Shown here piece by piece: positions 9,729-19,588 of a stretch of DNA of 64,000 bases. Source of the DNA: Candidatus Bathyarchaeia archaeon (GTDB lineage Archaea > Thermoproteota > Bathyarchaeia > TCS64); the NCBI GenBank assembly GCA_050014495.1, contig JBEKDF010000005.1, forward strand, positions 32,001 through 96,000. The letters run 5' to 3'. The notes below the pieces were generated by a model. That model did no database searches, had not been told where the DNA came from, and saw only the letters and a list, made by a program, of their open reading frames with translations. Both the position numbers and the translations under genes were made by a program. Position 1 is the first letter of the stretch, and each line of letters opens with the position of its first letter.

Positions 9729-10559
9729 TTAACGCGTTCTACTCAATATAGATCCGATTGGGATTCGAGTTTTCCTTCTTGCCTTAAAGGTTGTTATATT
9801 GGGGAAATCCGCTGCATTGAGCTGCTTAGCAGCCTCATAGAGATGGTCTCCGAGGGTGCCTATGGTGTGGCTGTCACTGCCAATGGTGACCGTGTCTACA
9901 CCCACTTCATGCGCAGCTAGTAGGAACTCCTGGAGGGGGTAGAAATGGCCTGTTCCGGCTCGGAGTCCTGCAGTGTTAACCTCGATTCCAACCCCCTCAT
10001 GCGCTGCTGACTCTAGAGCTTCCACGACAACAGAGCCGTAGTCTCCCCAGGTCGCATTCTTGCCGTAGAAGTGGAGATATTTTCGCCAGTAATCAGGGTG
10101 CGCCATAACGTCGAAGAGGCCGCTCTCGATCGCTTTCTTCCAAGTCGTATAATACTCATCCGCTGCCCTCCTTATACTACGACCTGCGAAGAACCCCTCC
10201 GCTTGGGTTCTCGAGCCTATGTCGACACCGTTTATGTAGTGGGTACTACCGAGGATGAAGTCGAAGTCGTAGCCTTTGAGAATTGAATCGAGTCGACGCT
10301 CTTGGCCGGGAAAATAGTCAACCTCGAGGCCTACTAGGAGTCTTACTCTCGTTTCCTCCTGCGCCGACCTTATCTCCTCGATGTACTCGGGTATCTCCTC
10401 TTCCTTGATGCTGATGTCAATATCAGGGCCAATGGTAATGAGATGGGTTGTGAAGGCGATCTCGGTGATTCCCTGAGCTTCCGCGGCTGCAATATACTCC
10501 GGTACAAGTGCTGTTGAGGCGTCCCTTGAGTGCCTCTCATGGACGTGATAATCTATCAT
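9729..10559 (-). CDS. PHP-family phosphatase (histidinol-phosphatase HisJ/HisK-like)
   Basis: DYHVH, GLEVDY, GSTH, AHPD, EVNT, GSDSH motifs. Confidence 0.88.
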   Translation of the reverse strand: MIDYHVHERHSRDASTALVPEYIAAAEAQGITEIAFTTHLITIGPDIDISIKEEEIPEYIEEIRSAQEETRVRLLVGLEVDYFPGQERRLDSILKGYDFDFILGSTHYINGVDIGSRTQAEGFFAGRSIRRAADEYYTTWKKAIESGLFDVMAHPDYWRKYLHFYGKNATWGDYGSVVVEALESAAHEGVGIEVNTAGLRAGTGHFYPLQEFLLAAHEVGVDTVTIGSDSHTIGTLGDHLYEAAKQLNAADFPNITTFKARRKTRIPIGSILSRTR

Positions 10560-10807
10560 CCTACGGCTCCTATCCCTGATATACTGAGGAGTGTTATTAG
10601 AAGAGTATACCCCGTAGGCTTTCTCATCGGGTATCTGAGGATCATTCTAAACATCTTAGAAGGTGTTCTATGGGGTAACTCATGTAAATCTCTGGGTGGC
10701 GTCTTCTATAGTGGTAATAGTTCTCCTTGATCAAGTTTGGAGAAGTTTCTGGCTCCGTGCGAAGCTAGCACGCGGAATGTTTATGTGTTCAGGATATTTT
10801 CCTTTCC

Positions 10808-10869
10808 TCTTGGCGGGTGAGTGGGGCCTCCCACCCGATTCCGCCAGATAAACCCCGGTGAAGGGAGGC
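10808..10869 (+). promoter_or_regulatory. Candidate cis-regulatory structured 5' leader of queT
   Basis: TATA-like TTTATG ~10780; stem TGGCGG/CCGCCA; inner hairpin GTGGG/CCCAC; GCCTCCC is complementary to GGGAGGC just before the ATG. Confidence 0.45.
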
Positions 10870-11385
10870 ATGAAAGTCAAAGAGATTAGCCTAGCTGCCA
10901 TTCTGGCAGCGTTATATGCAACACTAGTCGTGGTTCTTGCGCCAATTAGCTATGGTCCTATCCAGTTGAGGGTTGCGGATTGTCTTATTCCACTCTCAGC
11001 TCTCCTGGGTTGGCCAGCTGCCGTGGGGGTTTCCCTTGGCGCGCTTGTGGGCAACTTCTATTATTTTTTGGGTCCTGTCGACGTGGTCTTTGGTGCTTTA
11101 GCTAACTTGTTAGCTGGTTTATTGATTTGGAGGTTGAGAAAAAGGCTGCTTATGGGGTGCGTGCTAGCATCGCTTGTCATAGGTGTGATTGTTGGTGGAT
11201 ATTTGTGGACATTTTTCCCACCTCCCGATGTGCTCGGCCTAACTCTTCCTGTGTGGCTCGCCATGATCGTAAGCATCTCACTAAGTAGTCTAATCTCAGT
11301 AACGGTAATCGGTTACGGGTTGGTCCGCGGACTCGAGGCCTCAGGGCTTAAAAAACTACTAGAGTCTCGGGGCATAATTGTGTAG
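10870..11385 (+). CDS. queT: QueT-family transporter (S-component-like)
   Basis: AALYATL..LAPISYGPIQLRVAD, GVSLG.LVGN, G.VDVVFG signature; SD GGTGA 8 nt upstream of ATG 10870. Confidence 0.85.
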   Translation: MKVKEISLAAILAALYATLVVVLAPISYGPIQLRVADCLIPLSALLGWPAAVGVSLGALVGNFYYFLGPVDVVFGALANLLAGLLIWRLRKRLLMGCVLASLVIGVIVGGYLWTFFPPPDVLGLTLPVWLAMIVSISLSSLISVTVIGYGLVRGLEASGLKKLLESRGIIV

Positions 11386-11426: not shown

Positions 11427-12017
11427 GTGATGAATCTCAAAGTCATAGGGCTGGCCGGATTCTTTGGCATTGTTGCTCCCCTATTCGGGTTGTTAATTAT
11501 CATATCGAGCATATTGCTCGCACCCTGGTTTAGCTGGACGGGTAACGCCCTTAGTGACCTCGGTGGAACGAACGGATTCGGAGCTGTAGTATTCAACTCG
11601 GGTCTCGCGATGACAGGGGCTCTCATGATGATGTTCAGCACTGGTCTCTTCGAGCTCACCAAGGGGGATGTAGTTGGGCAGGTTGGTAGTGTTGTGTATT
11701 TGCTGTCGGCAATCCTGCTTATCGCCATCGGTGTCGTTAATATCACAATCGAGCCCTGGCATCTTTACGTTAGTATAGGCTTCTTTGTGGCCCTGCCCCT
11801 CTCCGCGATCCTCACAGGTATCTTCTGCTTTAGAAAGAAGATGAGATTTTACACTCTGTTGTCATTGGGGACAGCGGTCCTCGCTGCGGTCATATGGATA
11901 CTCCCTTGGTCTGCAGTAGCCATTCCCGAAGCACTTTCAGTGGCTTACCTTGGGGTCTGGCAGATTTTGCTAGGCTATTGGATGTATAAAAGAGTCGATG
12001 GTAAGTCAGAAGGATAG
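11427..12017 (+). CDS. DUF998-like membrane protein
   Basis: PWFSW..NALSDLG, FN.GL, H.YVS; ~6 TM helices. Confidence 0.75.
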   Translation: MMNLKVIGLAGFFGIVAPLFGLLIIISSILLAPWFSWTGNALSDLGGTNGFGAVVFNSGLAMTGALMMMFSTGLFELTKGDVVGQVGSVVYLLSAILLIAIGVVNITIEPWHLYVSIGFFVALPLSAILTGIFCFRKKMRFYTLLSLGTAVLAAVIWILPWSAVAIPEALSVAYLGVWQILLGYWMYKRVDGKSEG

Positions 12018-15535: not shown

Positions 15536-18096
15536 CGTGTAAAGAATGCTCCGAGCCCCGTTTGTCGTGGGCGCCCGACGAGTTCGTCGAAGCTCATGTC
15601 GAGGGCGTCGAGCACCTGTTCGAAGGTACCCTCGAGGTACTCCTCCATCTTGCCTATGTCAACGTCCTTCTTGCTCGCAATCTGCACGGGTTTGACTCCA
15701 TCTTTCGTGACTACGTAACTGATTATGTCCCCTTCCTTAAGCTCGTAGCCCTGCTCCTCGAGCATCCTACCCGCCCTGACGTGCTGGGGCGTTGTGTCGT
15801 AGCCTGCGAGGCCCTTTCCGAGCATCATGCTGAAGGCGACCTCCTCTATGTCAAACTCACGGTTCTTGAGGCGGTGGTTGATGGTAGTAACGAGGTTCCT
15901 GATCTCCTCCTTAGCGAGGGGGAACTCTTCGGGACCCTCGACGTTGCTGAGGATATTAGTGAGTTTGATGAAAGCATCCTTAAGTATTGGTGGAATGTGG
16001 CGCTTCTTCCCCGTTAGTCCCTTTATATCGAGTTTACCGTCGGGGTAGACACCGAGGTAGTTCTTCTTCCTGCTGCTGAATATCGCATATCGGTACTGTT
16101 TGTCGACGTCGAGGTCGATACCAAGTTCCGCGTCTGCCCAGCCAACGAGGCCTTCGATCTGCTCTTTCGACGGCTTCTCTAGAAAGACTGAATCCGTGTC
16201 GCCATAGATGACCTCTATGCCAAGTTGTTGACTCTTGTCGACCGCCTTGGTCATCGCATAGCGACCGACGGCGGCGGTGCTCTCCGCCAGCGGGGGGCAG
16301 TAAAGGGGGAAGCTCTCGGAACCGAAGACCCCATAGCTGGCATTAAGGAAGACCTTGAGAGCCTGTGTGACGACGTCGTAATACTGTCGCTCCTCGACGC
16401 TGAGGGTCTTATCCTTACTGAGGGGCTTATACCACTGGACCCTTAGGTCGCGTAGGCTACCAATAATGAGGCTCGTCATCCCGCGATTCTTCTTGCAGAC
16501 CCAATGGGGGGTGCCGGGGACAAGGTTGTCCCTGCACTCTGGGTGGTTGCAGAGGATGGTGTCGTAGCTTAGGTTCCAGTTCCTGATGGCGCTGGGGTAA
16601 AGGCTGGCGAAGTCGCAGACGACGACACCGAAGTGTACGCCGGGTTTGGGGTCCCTAACTATTGCTCCCTGGTACTTCTTGCCCTTAATTATGCTAGTGG
16701 TGCTCGTCTGCCCCTTAACGTCTAGGATATCTTGGGTGTTGGGGATGAGCCAGCCTCGCCTACGATGTTCCCACTCCATGAGAGATAGTATCCACCGGCT
16801 CACACCGTTTCGTGTGACATCCTCCATTATCATTTTGCTGATTCGTGTGAGTAGAACTATAAGATTCATGGCGAGGTCGTGGTTGAAGGCGGTTAGCTGG
16901 TAGGTGAGGTCAGCATCATTTAGGCAGTACTGGGCAAGGTCCTGTATGTTCGCTGTCGTGATGTCTCCAATCTGAAGCTTTTCCATGTTGAGGAGGTTCT
17001 TGGATATCTCATTAAGTGTGTTTTCCCTGTAGCGGTTTCCGAAGGCGTAGCCCTGTATGCTCCTGTTCATGAAGAATTTGTAGAGATCGAGGTGGACGCC
17101 ATTTCTGAGGAAGGCGAATCTTCGTCCCATGACTATGGGGTTCTCGGAGTCGGGGATACCGAGGTTCTTCGCCCTGTTACGCATGTAACGGAAGTCGAAG
17201 TCGTCGCCGTTGAACGTGAGGACGACGGGGTACTCGTCGAGGATCTGGAATGTCTCCCTGATTATGTCACGCTCGTCAGTGTAGACTTTGACTTCCGCGC
17301 CAAGGACGACGGGTGTGGGAACGTCATGGTCAGTGTCATTAAGGACGATTATCCTGCGGAAGCCATCGCTGGCTGAAAATCCTACGGCTGTGATTGGTTC
17401 CTGTGCCTCATTGGCATTAGGAAGCCTGTTCTGGACACTTGGACGGACCTCGATGTCGATCGCGACGCGCCGCAGCTTGGGAACTGGGCATTGTAGGAGG
17501 CGGGTCCACTCCTTCATGTTACCCCTGAACTCGGGCTCAATTTTCTCTAGGATATTGTCAATCTTCGCTTCCGTCTCCATATCGAGGGTGTAACCGGCAT
17601 CGACTAGGTTGCCGTTCTCGATCCTGTATGGCATTCCGGTGATGAGTTCGCGGTCGTAGATGTAGCACTGGTAGTACCTGATTCGACTCTCCCAGCTGTC
17701 CCCAATGATACTCCTTATAGGTTGACCCCTGCCACCGCCTATGCTGAGAGGGTCCTTAGCGACGACCTTCGTAACCTTGATCTCCTGGTCTGCGAGTGAG
17801 TCATGTTTGGGGACCTCCTCCATGAAGAAGTAGCCCTCGTGGCGGAGTAGGCGCTGGTTCTTCTCAAGCTCCTTGATAGGCTCCCTGCTTAAGCAGTATG
17901 GGAGGTGGCTCGTGTTATCGTACCAGAGGTAGACCTGCTGGCTCACGGGCTCGTAAAGTCGTAGGTACGCCTTCTGCTCCTCGCCATCGTAGCCAGCGCT
18001 GAGGAGATAGCTTGTGGGAAGGTTGTCAGGAGCAATCCGTCCCTTTGGTCTAATCTCCTCCTCGCTCTCGTCCATGATGAAGTCAGGAGCAGCCAT
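15532..18096 (-). CDS. polB: Family B DNA polymerase (crenarchaeal PolB1 type)
   Basis: Exo DIE and FNGDDFD; polymerase DFASLYPS, K..LNASYG, YGDTDS, KKNY; no intein. Confidence 0.95.
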   Translation of the reverse strand: MAAPDFIMDESEEEIRPKGRIAPDNLPTSYLLSAGYDGEEQKAYLRLYEPVSQQVYLWYDNTSHLPYCLSREPIKELEKNQRLLRHEGYFFMEEVPKHDSLADQEIKVTKVVAKDPLSIGGGRGQPIRSIIGDSWESRIRYYQCYIYDRELITGMPYRIENGNLVDAGYTLDMETEAKIDNILEKIEPEFRGNMKEWTRLLQCPVPKLRRVAIDIEVRPSVQNRLPNANEAQEPITAVGFSASDGFRRIIVLNDTDHDVPTPVVLGAEVKVYTDERDIIRETFQILDEYPVVLTFNGDDFDFRYMRNRAKNLGIPDSENPIVMGRRFAFLRNGVHLDLYKFFMNRSIQGYAFGNRYRENTLNEISKNLLNMEKLQIGDITTANIQDLAQYCLNDADLTYQLTAFNHDLAMNLIVLLTRISKMIMEDVTRNGVSRWILSLMEWEHRRRGWLIPNTQDILDVKGQTSTTSIIKGKKYQGAIVRDPKPGVHFGVVVCDFASLYPSAIRNWNLSYDTILCNHPECRDNLVPGTPHWVCKKNRGMTSLIIGSLRDLRVQWYKPLSKDKTLSVEERQYYDVVTQALKVFLNASYGVFGSESFPLYCPPLAESTAAVGRYAMTKAVDKSQQLGIEVIYGDTDSVFLEKPSKEQIEGLVGWADAELGIDLDVDKQYRYAIFSSRKKNYLGVYPDGKLDIKGLTGKKRHIPPILKDAFIKLTNILSNVEGPEEFPLAKEEIRNLVTTINHRLKNREFDIEEVAFSMMLGKGLAGYDTTPQHVRAGRMLEEQGYELKEGDIISYVVTKDGVKPVQIASKKDVDIGKMEEYLEGTFEQVLDALDMSFDELVGRPRQTGLGAFFTR

Positions 18097-18128
18097 CGCG
18101 TAGACTTCGACTCGCTGGGATATATGGA

Positions 18129-19025
18129 CTATGAGGGGGAGCCACGGCGAGCTCTCTCAGCCAAGTAGAGGGTCTCGAGAACGATGTAGGCTGCTTGGAT
18201 CGCGGTTAAACCCGAATCGTAATTGGGGGAGACCTCGCTCAAATCAAATCCGACGAGGTGTTCATCGACGGCGGTAGCAATCATGTCGAGTAGCTGGGTT
18301 ACCCCGATGCCTTCTGGGCTGGGGTTGCCAACGGCGGGAGCCTCAGCGGGGTCGACTGCATCCATGTCGATGCTTAGATAGACTGACTCAACTCCTTCGA
18401 GGGCTTCCTTGATCATTTCTTGGACGGGTTCGATACCAAACCGCTTTACGTCTTGCGCCGTGACGACGGTGACACACTTCTCCTTGGCGTATTCAATCTC
18501 CTCCGCAGAGAGGGCGCGTGCTGCGACGATTACGAGCTTAAATCCCTGCTCCTCATATGCCCTGCGTAGATAAGTAGCGTGACATAGGCGCTCGTCAAAG
18601 AGGGTGTCCCTGAGATCGAGATGGGCGTCGAAAACTATGACCATGGCAGGGCAGAGGGCGCGTAAAGCGCCGAGTGTGATCGTGTGTTCACCTCCGAGCA
18701 TGACTGGTAGCTTACCCGAACCCTTGATCTCTTCTACGAGCCTCCTGATTTTTTCTACGGTGGGCCCAACCTCCTCTACCTCGGCGATGTCGCCTATGTC
18801 GACGAGTTTGAGGTCCTCCCAGTCGAGGCCCGTCCTTACGCTGTAGCTCTCCATGTATTGGCTTACCTCCCTGATTGCGTTGGGGGCGAACCTGCTGCCG
18901 CTCCGGTAAGAGGCGGTCCGGTCCAGTGGTGCCCCGAAGAGTAAGTAGTCAGCATCCTCGGGTTCGCCTGACTTCTCGAAGAAAAGCTCGGGAACAGGAT
19001 TCAGCAACTCGTCAAATATCTTCAT
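18129..19025 (-). CDS. speB: Agmatinase
   Basis: GSRFAP, GGEHT, DAHLD, SIDMDAVDP. Confidence 0.9.
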   Translation of the reverse strand: MKIFDELLNPVPELFFEKSGEPEDADYLLFGAPLDRTASYRSGSRFAPNAIREVSQYMESYSVRTGLDWEDLKLVDIGDIAEVEEVGPTVEKIRRLVEEIKGSGKLPVMLGGEHTITLGALRALCPAMVIVFDAHLDLRDTLFDERLCHATYLRRAYEEQGFKLVIVAARALSAEEIEYAKEKCVTVVTAQDVKRFGIEPVQEMIKEALEGVESVYLSIDMDAVDPAEAPAVGNPSPEGIGVTQLLDMIATAVDEHLVGFDLSEVSPNYDSGLTAIQAAYIVLETLYLAERARRGSPS

Positions 19026-19588
19026 ATCTGTACCTCCTTCCATCGGTAGCACTTGGTTAGATGGTCGTTTACGAGACCAGCTGCTTGCATGTAGGCATAA
19101 CAGATGGTTGGGCCAATGAAGGTGAAACCCCGCTTCCTAAGGTCCTTGCTCATTGCGCGGCTCTCCTCAGTCTCCACGGGCATATCCTTGAAGATGGTAA
19201 ATGTGTTGACTTTCTGCTTGCCGCCGACGAAGCTCCAGATATACCTATCGAAGGAACCGAACTCCTTCTGGACCTCAAGTAAAGCGCGGGCATTCTTTAC
19301 AGCTGCCTCGATCTTCCTACGGTTACGGATGATGCCGGGGTGATTCATGATTCTCTCTGTGTCTGCGTCCGTGTAGGCGGCGACCCTCTTAGGATCGAAG
19401 TTGTGGAAGGCCTCGCGGTAGGCTTCGCGCCTGTATAGGACGGTGCGCCAGCTGAGTCCCGCCTGGACGCCTTCGAGGACTATAAACTCAAGGTGGAGCC
19501 GGTCGTCGTGGATTTGTACTCCCCACTCCCCGTTGTGGTAGGCCGTCATTAGTGGGTCGTTTGTGCCCCAGCCGCAAGTCTCCTTCAT
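19022..19588 (-). CDS. tag: DNA-3-methyladenine glycosylase I
   Basis: C.W...YH..EWG, QAGLSW, IIRNR.KI, GPTICYAYMQAAG.VNDH...C. Confidence 0.95.
   Translation of the reverse strand: MKETCGWGTNDPLMTAYHNGEWGVQIHDDRLHLEFIVLEGVQAGLSWRTVLYRREAYREAFHNFDPKRVAAYTDADTERIMNHPGIIRNRRKIEAAVKNARALLEVQKEFGSFDRYIWSFVGGKQKVNTFTIFKDMPVETEESRAMSKDLRKRGFTFIGPTICYAYMQAAGLVNDHLTKCYRWKEVQI

Follow-up and report, generated by a model that had tools for sequence, protein, structure and literature searches.

What governs the expression of queT in this Bathyarchaeia genome, and is the short leader between its promoter and its start codon a regulatory RNA? The question arises from one locus of the window, i.e., the complete 64,000-nucleotide stretch of DNA that was analysed (Table 1). 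The preliminary description took the leader for an archaeal translational switch, and the sequence words on which it relied are all present: TTTATG (10780–10785) as a TATA-like element, TGGCGG (10811–10816) and CCGCCA (10841–10846) as an outer stem, GTGGG-GCCT-CCCAC (10821–10834) as an inner hairpin, GCCTCCC (10826–10832) complementary to GGGAGGC (10863–10869), GGGG (10823–10826) complementary to CCCC (10853–10856), the Shine–Dalgarno (SD)-like GGTGA (10857–10861) and the ATG (10870). The gene had been called a QueT transporter, and profile search agrees (PF06177, 93.6 bits against a cut-off of 33.7; E 1.7e-26).

Table 1. Features of the queT locus in the window, and compact elements that precede queT in four other genomes.
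Feature	Position	Strand	Remarks
queT	10870–11385	+	ECF S-component for 7-deazaguanines, 171 aa; PF06177
TATA-like box	10780–10787	+	Assigned by sequence; predicted transcription start ~10806–10810
P1 5′ strand	10811–10817	+	Five core pairs, outer U-A, invariant closing G-U
Loop L1	10818–10825	+	Conserved U-R-(R)-G core; 10821–10825 also able to pair with 10830–10834 (inner hairpin)
Anti-SD (P2 distal 5′ strand)	10826–10832	+	Partner 10863–10869
CCG (P2 proximal 5′ strand)	10835–10837	+	Partner 10856–10858
Short loop L2 and P1 3′ strand	10838–10846	+	L2 is A-U in this leader; most members have one pyrimidine
Loop L3	10847–10855	+	Ends in AAA-Y-CC; putative role of these residues in minor-groove contacts and the ligand pocket
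P2 3′ strand	10856–10869	+	CGG, 4-nt bulge region, GGGAGGC
DUF998 membrane-protein gene	11427–12017	+	PF06197; downstream neighbour of queT
Compact element L324	G160:C58:15610–15641	-	
Compact element L325	G185:C34:14509–14540		
Compact element L326	G269:C1:1126235–1126271		
Compact element L327	G283:C4:27353–27385		

Folded alone, the leader is unremarkable (minimum free energy z-score −1.3; a fold as good is reached by 21 of 200 shuffles), and it is conservation that lifts it above chance. Of the 2390 ATG-led open reading frames of this genome, 7, queT among them, are preceded by a perfect 6-bp stem enclosing a loop that pairs perfectly over 7 bp with the final 16 nt. As to the surroundings, a PHP/HisJ-like phosphatase gene (window 9729–10559, minus strand) is divergent from queT, with a similar divergent PHP gene in another locus (L120); a GC-rich inverted repeat just 5′ of the TATA-like box (10755–10777) is not kept in the closest relatives; and a DUF998-like gene, read by eye, follows queT or queT–queC in several loci of the same family.

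Judged by comparative analysis, the leader folds as an H-type pseudoknot that is conserved, with a stem P1 and a long helix P2 in which the ribosome-binding region is hidden. P1 pairs 10811–10817 with 10840–10846 and is closed by an invariant G-U. P2 consists of the anti-SD, an optional AC and CCG, paired to CGG, an optional GU and the SD, giving 8–12 bp with bulges; its proximal part, in which C10856 and the following GG (10856–10858) pair with CCG at 10835–10837, lengthens the anti-SD helix, and its three pairs form in 72, 74 (five as U-G) and 76 (one as G-U) of 76 sequences. Both SD-like words lie on the P2 3′ strand, i.e., GGTGA, 8 nt before the ATG, and GGGAGG (10863–10868); the properly spaced SD in the clade of the window is probably GGTGA, the ATG standing 1 nt after GGGAGGC. 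L2 has 1–3 nt, and L3 has 7–14 nt without a stem. The AAA of L3 is present in 185 of 187 parsed cores, its CC being partly fixed by the search pattern, which also imposes part of the invariance of the GU and CCC.

The outer stem and the anti-SD/SD helix, both of which had been predicted from this one sequence, are real by the test of covariation among orthologous queT leaders. Over 76 sequences, 92% of the cells of P1 and P2 are paired, and 59 two-sided changes, some of which are one indel counted twice, stand against 14.5 in shuffled alignments (reached in 0 of 500); slid-register controls pair 46–58% of cells. Native anti-SD/SD duplexes are stronger than those with swapped partners (z −12.7; 0 of 5000), in a parse that placed the C-run one base off in some rows. 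The lengths of the C-run and G-run are coupled (3/3 in 51 sequences, 2/2 in 21, 2/3 in 3 and 3/2 in none). On a QueT tree of 136 loci (midpoint root, parsimony, tree search unfinished), same-branch co-changes number 19 against 2.5 expected for the outer P1 pair, 4 of 4 against 0.06 for the inner pair and 7 against 1.6 for the C/G run, with 0 in cross-pair controls. Distinct compensated helices include CCGAC/GUCGG, CCUUCCA/UGGAAGG and CCUCGCA/UGCGAGG. A different register, CGGGUG/CACCCG, was rejected, being broken by 23 GCGC variants that retain P1.

Two further pairings of the preliminary description fare less well. The proposed GGGG/CCCC pairing drops out: 82% of its cells pair, and 335 of 500 shuffles reach its covariation score. 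The inner hairpin is available to most members but lacks covariation (98 of 500 shuffles); in minimal members it is weak or missing, it is weak in 9 listed cores, gains <3 kcal/mol in 6 of 187, and would be at most an accessory competitor in a putative ON state. Mean stacking energy is −20.9 kcal/mol for P2 and −9.6 for the inner hairpin, pseudoknot penalty excluded; nearest-neighbour energies thus calculated show no poised switch and cannot decide poise. The high computed stability of P2 and the lack of covariation in the inner hairpin would suit a structure that works without a ligand, such as a constitutive damper, a thermometer or a stability element setting a low output of QueT. Such a structure has no need of unpaired residues that are invariant across two phyla, nor would it explain why the motif was repeatedly placed before first genes of at least six unrelated kinds, all from one pathway, and three times in one genome (see below); it is quite improbable.

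The preliminary description also placed a promoter just 5′ of the stem, and homologous leaders bear this out: in the parsed set, the DNA is A-rich at −40 to −35 and T/A-rich at −34 to −25 before P1, a BRE/TATA-like composition (a sigma-70 promoter scan is inapplicable to archaea). Since these signals lie 25–40 nt before P1, the motif is likely to be the whole 5′ UTR. The DNA 5′ of the motif is not conserved among homologous loci. The same region could be imagined as a K-turn or C/D-box-like L7Ae site, as a small independent RNA gene or as a coding extension of queT, given that GUGAG resembles box C, that CCGA stands on the other strand in the clade of the window and that some loci have upstream in-frame ORFs. 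These readings are hardly credible. The tandem G-A of a K-turn would need GA on both strands, found in only 9 of 187 cores; reading frames are random (36/35/32); and the motif is always in the sense orientation, mostly with 17–21 nt between CCC and the start codon, with no snoRNA or sRNA family above background in Rfam.

The motif is common among relatives. A near-identical leader of ~60 nt (~58–60 nt in the window; ~50 nt in the minimal member, L318) precedes queT in 23 of the best 30 QueT loci from 61 relatives searched, and the 7 that lack it all belong to families f3 and f4. In family f4 (L021, L022, L024, L025), a tRNA-like gene stands directly before queT instead (anticodon GCT, Ser, by eye), and in another locus (L023, G038:C29) the place is taken by a C/D-box sRNA-like element (box C/D′/C′/D words and a terminal stem, by eye). 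A covariance model built from 22 of these 23 loci finds the motif in 91 of 150 Bathyarchaeia genomes (70 of 94 good ones), and it precedes even QueT proteins that are 35–47% identical to that of the window. The genome of the window has a second copy, on contig C51, before a second queT and queC; this second queT (C51:15100–15560(−), L286) seems frameshifted near its 5′ end, either in reality or through an assembly error.

A second covariance model (76 sequences, 64 positions) finds the motif in 28 of 150 genomes of the phylum, 15 of these outside Bathyarchaeia, one being a chance match; the weak match in genome G358 (E 4.8e-4) falls within a TPP-enzyme gene and was discarded. The same model finds it in 16 of the 121 genomes in the class to which genome G431 belongs and in 21 of the 41 in its order. 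In a second phylum (Promethearchaeota), 14 of 121 genomes have it, 10 strongly and 4 weakly. In a pattern scan of GTDB, by which bacteria were sampled, 46 of the 80 titled loci among the matches listed score at least 49.6 bits, and all are archaeal (39 Bathyarchaeia, 3 Nitrososphaerota, 1 Methanomethylicota, 1 Promethearchaeota and 2 other archaea); the other 34 listed score <16 bits. Sixteen pattern matches in viral contigs reach 10.1 bits at best, and no blastn match was found in plasmids. In the data searched, the motif is confined to archaea.

Wherever downstream DNA sufficed, the first gene behind the motif is queT, another ECF S-component, queE, queC, queD or an ArcS-like gene, and the second is often queC, folE, GAT-queC or a RaSEA-like gene; by annotation and context, these are genes of the archaeosine pathway. 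Regular-expression searches gave 224 matches, from which 31 pattern-only ones without profile support were dropped (21 tested, 10 without an nhmmer match). Among loci numbered from L071 upwards, which came from model or pattern searches or were fetched around their matches, the first gene is queT in 136, an ECF-S family called X here in 7, queE-like in 3 and queC in 1, with 3 loci too short. In metagenomes, 113 of 120 pattern loci are real (101 queT, 6 X, 2 queE, 1 queD, 3 short). In the order of G431, 19 new loci lead 8 queT, 6 queE, 3 ArcS-like and 2 X genes, and queE-like genes behind the motif are followed by genes for GAT-QueC fusions; G431 itself has three motif copies, before queE–queC, queE–folE and queT–queC. 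No purine or methionine gene was found first behind the motif among the 147 + 110 loci with enough downstream DNA.

X is a family of membrane proteins of 230–280 aa (L121, L122, L123, L130, L188, L234, L351, L359). Neither a Pfam match nor BLAST similarity to the QueT of the window was found, X resembles ECF S-components in the Atlas, and queC is the next gene in L234, L351 and L359; X is a candidate for a new 7-deazaguanine transporter. In three genomes (G706, G684, G696; L360–L362, L486–L488), a variant of the motif, scoring 32–34 bits and lacking the CGG pairs, leads a short ArcS-like DUF5591 gene (226–230 aa), which carries PCxxxKPYxxSxxH, a motif named in the accessible part of PMC5699537, and has a RaSEA-like radical SAM gene nearby (one scored). 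QueE-like and ArcS/RaSEA-like proteins score below curated equivalog cut-offs, and their names stand for best match plus context. The ArcS-like/RaSEA-like pair is possibly a minimal archaeosine synthase.

The occurrence of queC is also informative, since 29 of 42 copies in Bathyarchaeia lie directly behind the motif, and queD is present in 13 of 150 genomes of the class, none of them among the 29 with motif and queC. Motif–queC genomes without a detected queD fit CDG salvage that ends in preQ0. In one locus (L287, G122:C135:1045–2232), queT and queC are separated by an oppositely oriented gene of 395 aa, in which a P-loop-like motif was read by eye. The genome of the window encodes archaeal TgtA (563.7 bits against a cut-off of 350) and EcfT; queD, folE, folE2, queF, full ArcS and RaSEA were not found in this assembly, which is 96% complete. 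A separate PUA-domain gene lies near TgtA (C4:14607–15044(−) and 17733–19349). Because TgtA is present and QueF was not found, preQ0 rather than preQ1 would be the free substrate here (PMC4770233, PMC5699537, as far as the accessible parts of both sources go).

Taken with its position in cis in the 5′ UTR, the covarying structure, the genes of one pathway and a recognizable expression platform, which are general features of riboswitches, this makes it probable that the leader is a translational OFF riboswitch for a 7-deazaguanine of the archaeosine pathway. Likely it is an undescribed, archaea-specific riboswitch that would turn translation off when the precursor is abundant. The 7-deazaguanine ligand had been proposed from the start and, resting on gene context, is still the best reading. 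Transcription would begin a few bases 5′ of P1. At a low level of ligand, P2 would be open, often aided by the inner hairpin, which uses the anti-SD, and the ribosome could load. Where P1 and P2 meet, the ligand would be stacked among the invariant residues (G-U, U, AAA, CC); once bound, it would lock P2 and bury the SD, which would reduce both import (QueT, ECF-S) and synthesis (FolE, QueD, QueE, QueC, GAT-QueC, ArcS/RaSEA-like proteins).

If the leader is a riboswitch, its ligand is most likely preQ0, at slightly better than even odds. PreQ0 is ranked first because it is the free product on which import, CDG salvage and de novo synthesis converge, and because ArcTGT uses it as its substrate (PMC4770233, PMC5699537). 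Archaeosine base or nucleoside is an appreciable but distinctly less probable candidate; it takes second place because the leader is shared by genes that act downstream of preQ0. Control of the ArcS/RaSEA-like genes is a poor fit for an OFF response to preQ0. Free archaeosine base decays to preQ0, as stated in the part of PMC5699537 consulted. CDG, ADG or preQ1 is a rather unlikely ligand, and any other a most unlikely one. The pocket is not readable from known classes because the specificity C of class I is absent before the P1 3′ strand.

A riboswitch for something other than a 7-deazaguanine, e.g., guanine, GTP or SAM, could be read from the H-type fold with the SD in its second helix, which resembles SAM-II in outline; QueE and RaSEA are radical-SAM enzymes, and queE leads 6 of the 19 new loci in the order of G431. 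Most copies, however, lead queT or queT–queC, which do not use SAM; the first-gene census lacks purine and methionine genes; and no SAM-II or purine match appears in Rfam at E up to 10, so that this reading is very improbable.

Further support for the ligand family comes from a second type of leader. In 4 of 301 genomes of the class, a compact preQ1-I-like pseudoknot directly before queT replaces the motif (Table 1). It consists of P1, UUU, CCG, a segment ending in AAC, P1′, an A-run and CCGG, and it has the same CCG/CGG pairing as the motif; a scan of two of these genomes (G160, G283) with RF00522 does not detect it. The element would amount to an archaeal preQ riboswitch of a class-I-like type, and its occurrence in the place of the motif supports the ligand family and hints at a kinship of the two folds. 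A third, longer leader precedes queT in L048 (G048:C1 ~457930–458040) and L049 (G061:C3 ~86250–86350), with a P1-like start stem and three further shared blocks; it is present in 2 of 151 genomes by exact pattern and has no match in Rfam.

The substitution by the compact element also bears on the reading in which the pseudoknot is a protein-binding translational operator, with TgtA, QueC or another regulator blocking the SD when the metabolite or the modified tRNA is abundant. An operator of this kind would account for the same covariation and gene context, and for the lack of the usual specificity C at the class I position; in addition, ArcTGT is broad in its recognition of the RNA backbone, and further RNAs may be among its targets (PMC4770233). 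Replacement by a preQ1-I-like element argues against it, as do the small size, the pseudoknot, the A-rich L3 and the invariant unpaired junction residues, which are typical of metabolite aptamers (PMC11625349, in the part available), and no regulator gene was found beside the motif in the loci read. A protein operator is accordingly unlikely, and the riboswitch remains the preferred reading.

No description of the motif was found in the literature searched, including the accessible parts of PMC11130926, PMC10043782, PMC5737381 and PMC12445698, of which supplementary motif tables could matter. The motif is real, and it is a probably new candidate for a riboswitch class. It is quite likely to be the first class of riboswitch that only archaea have (TACK and Asgard lineages), to add a fourth to the RNA architectures that read 7-deazaguanines, with preQ0 or archaeosine itself as its target, and to mark a whole archaeosine regulon, including the ECF S-component X, the queT–queC unit of CDG salvage and the short ArcS-like/RaSEA-like pair. 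The current view is that archaea make little use of riboswitches and borrow them all from bacterial classes (PMC5473149, PMC11549558), and a common class found only in archaea would, if true, alter this picture. It would also show how the supply of archaeosine is regulated, it would probably disclose a new mode in which RNA reads a 7-deazaguanine, and it would possibly provide the first natural aptamer selective for preQ0 or archaeosine. Its size of ~58 nt suits in vitro work, and it could be used in archaea as a genetic switch of native origin. The gene associations predict a new family of 7-deazaguanine transporters and CDG salvage by queT–queC where queD was not found.

Comparison with the known riboswitches places the motif beside, not within, the preQ1 classes, to which the preliminary description had looked for a match. 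Rfam searches at E up to 10 gave chance matches only, both for window positions 10400–11100 and for 20 homologous leader regions, and the features that define the three classes are absent. Those classes were described from bacteria only, to judge from the accessible part of PMC11625349, in which the string "archae" is absent. According to the same part of that source, preQ1-I (RF00522, types I–III) shares with the motif an H-type pseudoknot, a 5-bp P1, a U in L1, an A-rich L3, an SD in P2 (fully buried in type III) and control of queT and queCDEF. However, its specificity C, in UC or AC before the P1 3′ strand, is absent: the last base there is U in 162 of 162 (pairing with G), preceded by U in 156 and C in 6. 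In preQ1-I, a conserved G-C pair that ends P1 forms the floor of the pocket, with a U next to it; in the motif, the fifth P1 pair is G-C in 139 and C-G in 23 of 162, followed by the invariant G-U and then a U. Further differences from preQ1-I are the invariant G-U closure, L2 of 1–3 nt, the long bulged P2 of 8–12 bp, the AAA-Y-CC linker, the G-rich L1, only three conserved A residues and the archaeal hosts.

PreQ1-II (RF01054, the COG4708 or queT motif) resembles the motif in its place before queT, in its translational action and in holding the whole SD in a pseudoknot helix (PMC11625349, accessible part), whereas its P4 hairpin, HLout fold and U-A-U triple sequence are absent from the motif, and it is found in Bacillota only. 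PreQ1-III (RF02680) is likewise a queT leader in which an internal anti-SD pairs with the SD, but it has ~100 nt, five helices and two pseudoknots (PMC11625349, accessible part), compared with ~58 nt and two helices, without a U-A-U floor, in the motif. Where preQ1-II and preQ1-III have a gamma pocket, with a trans-pairing C, a U and U-A-U major-groove triples, the motif has GU(R)(R)G in L1 and the CCG/CGG pairs at the junction, and it lacks a U-A run. SAM-II likewise has an A-rich L3 and a classical H-type fold, in which the SD lies in helix 2. The motif differs from it in sequence, in an L1 that is not U-rich, and in the lack of met genes and of an Rfam match.

Known archaeal riboswitches comprise TPP and fluoride, with occasional FMN, Mg2+-I and guanidine-II members, 87 archaeal examples being given in the accessible part of PMC5473149. 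These are bacterial classes used sparingly, whereas the data searched show the motif in archaea only, and there in the majority of the genomes of one class. Compared feature by feature, its mode is like that of preQ1-II and of type III preQ1-I, and it is a member of neither.
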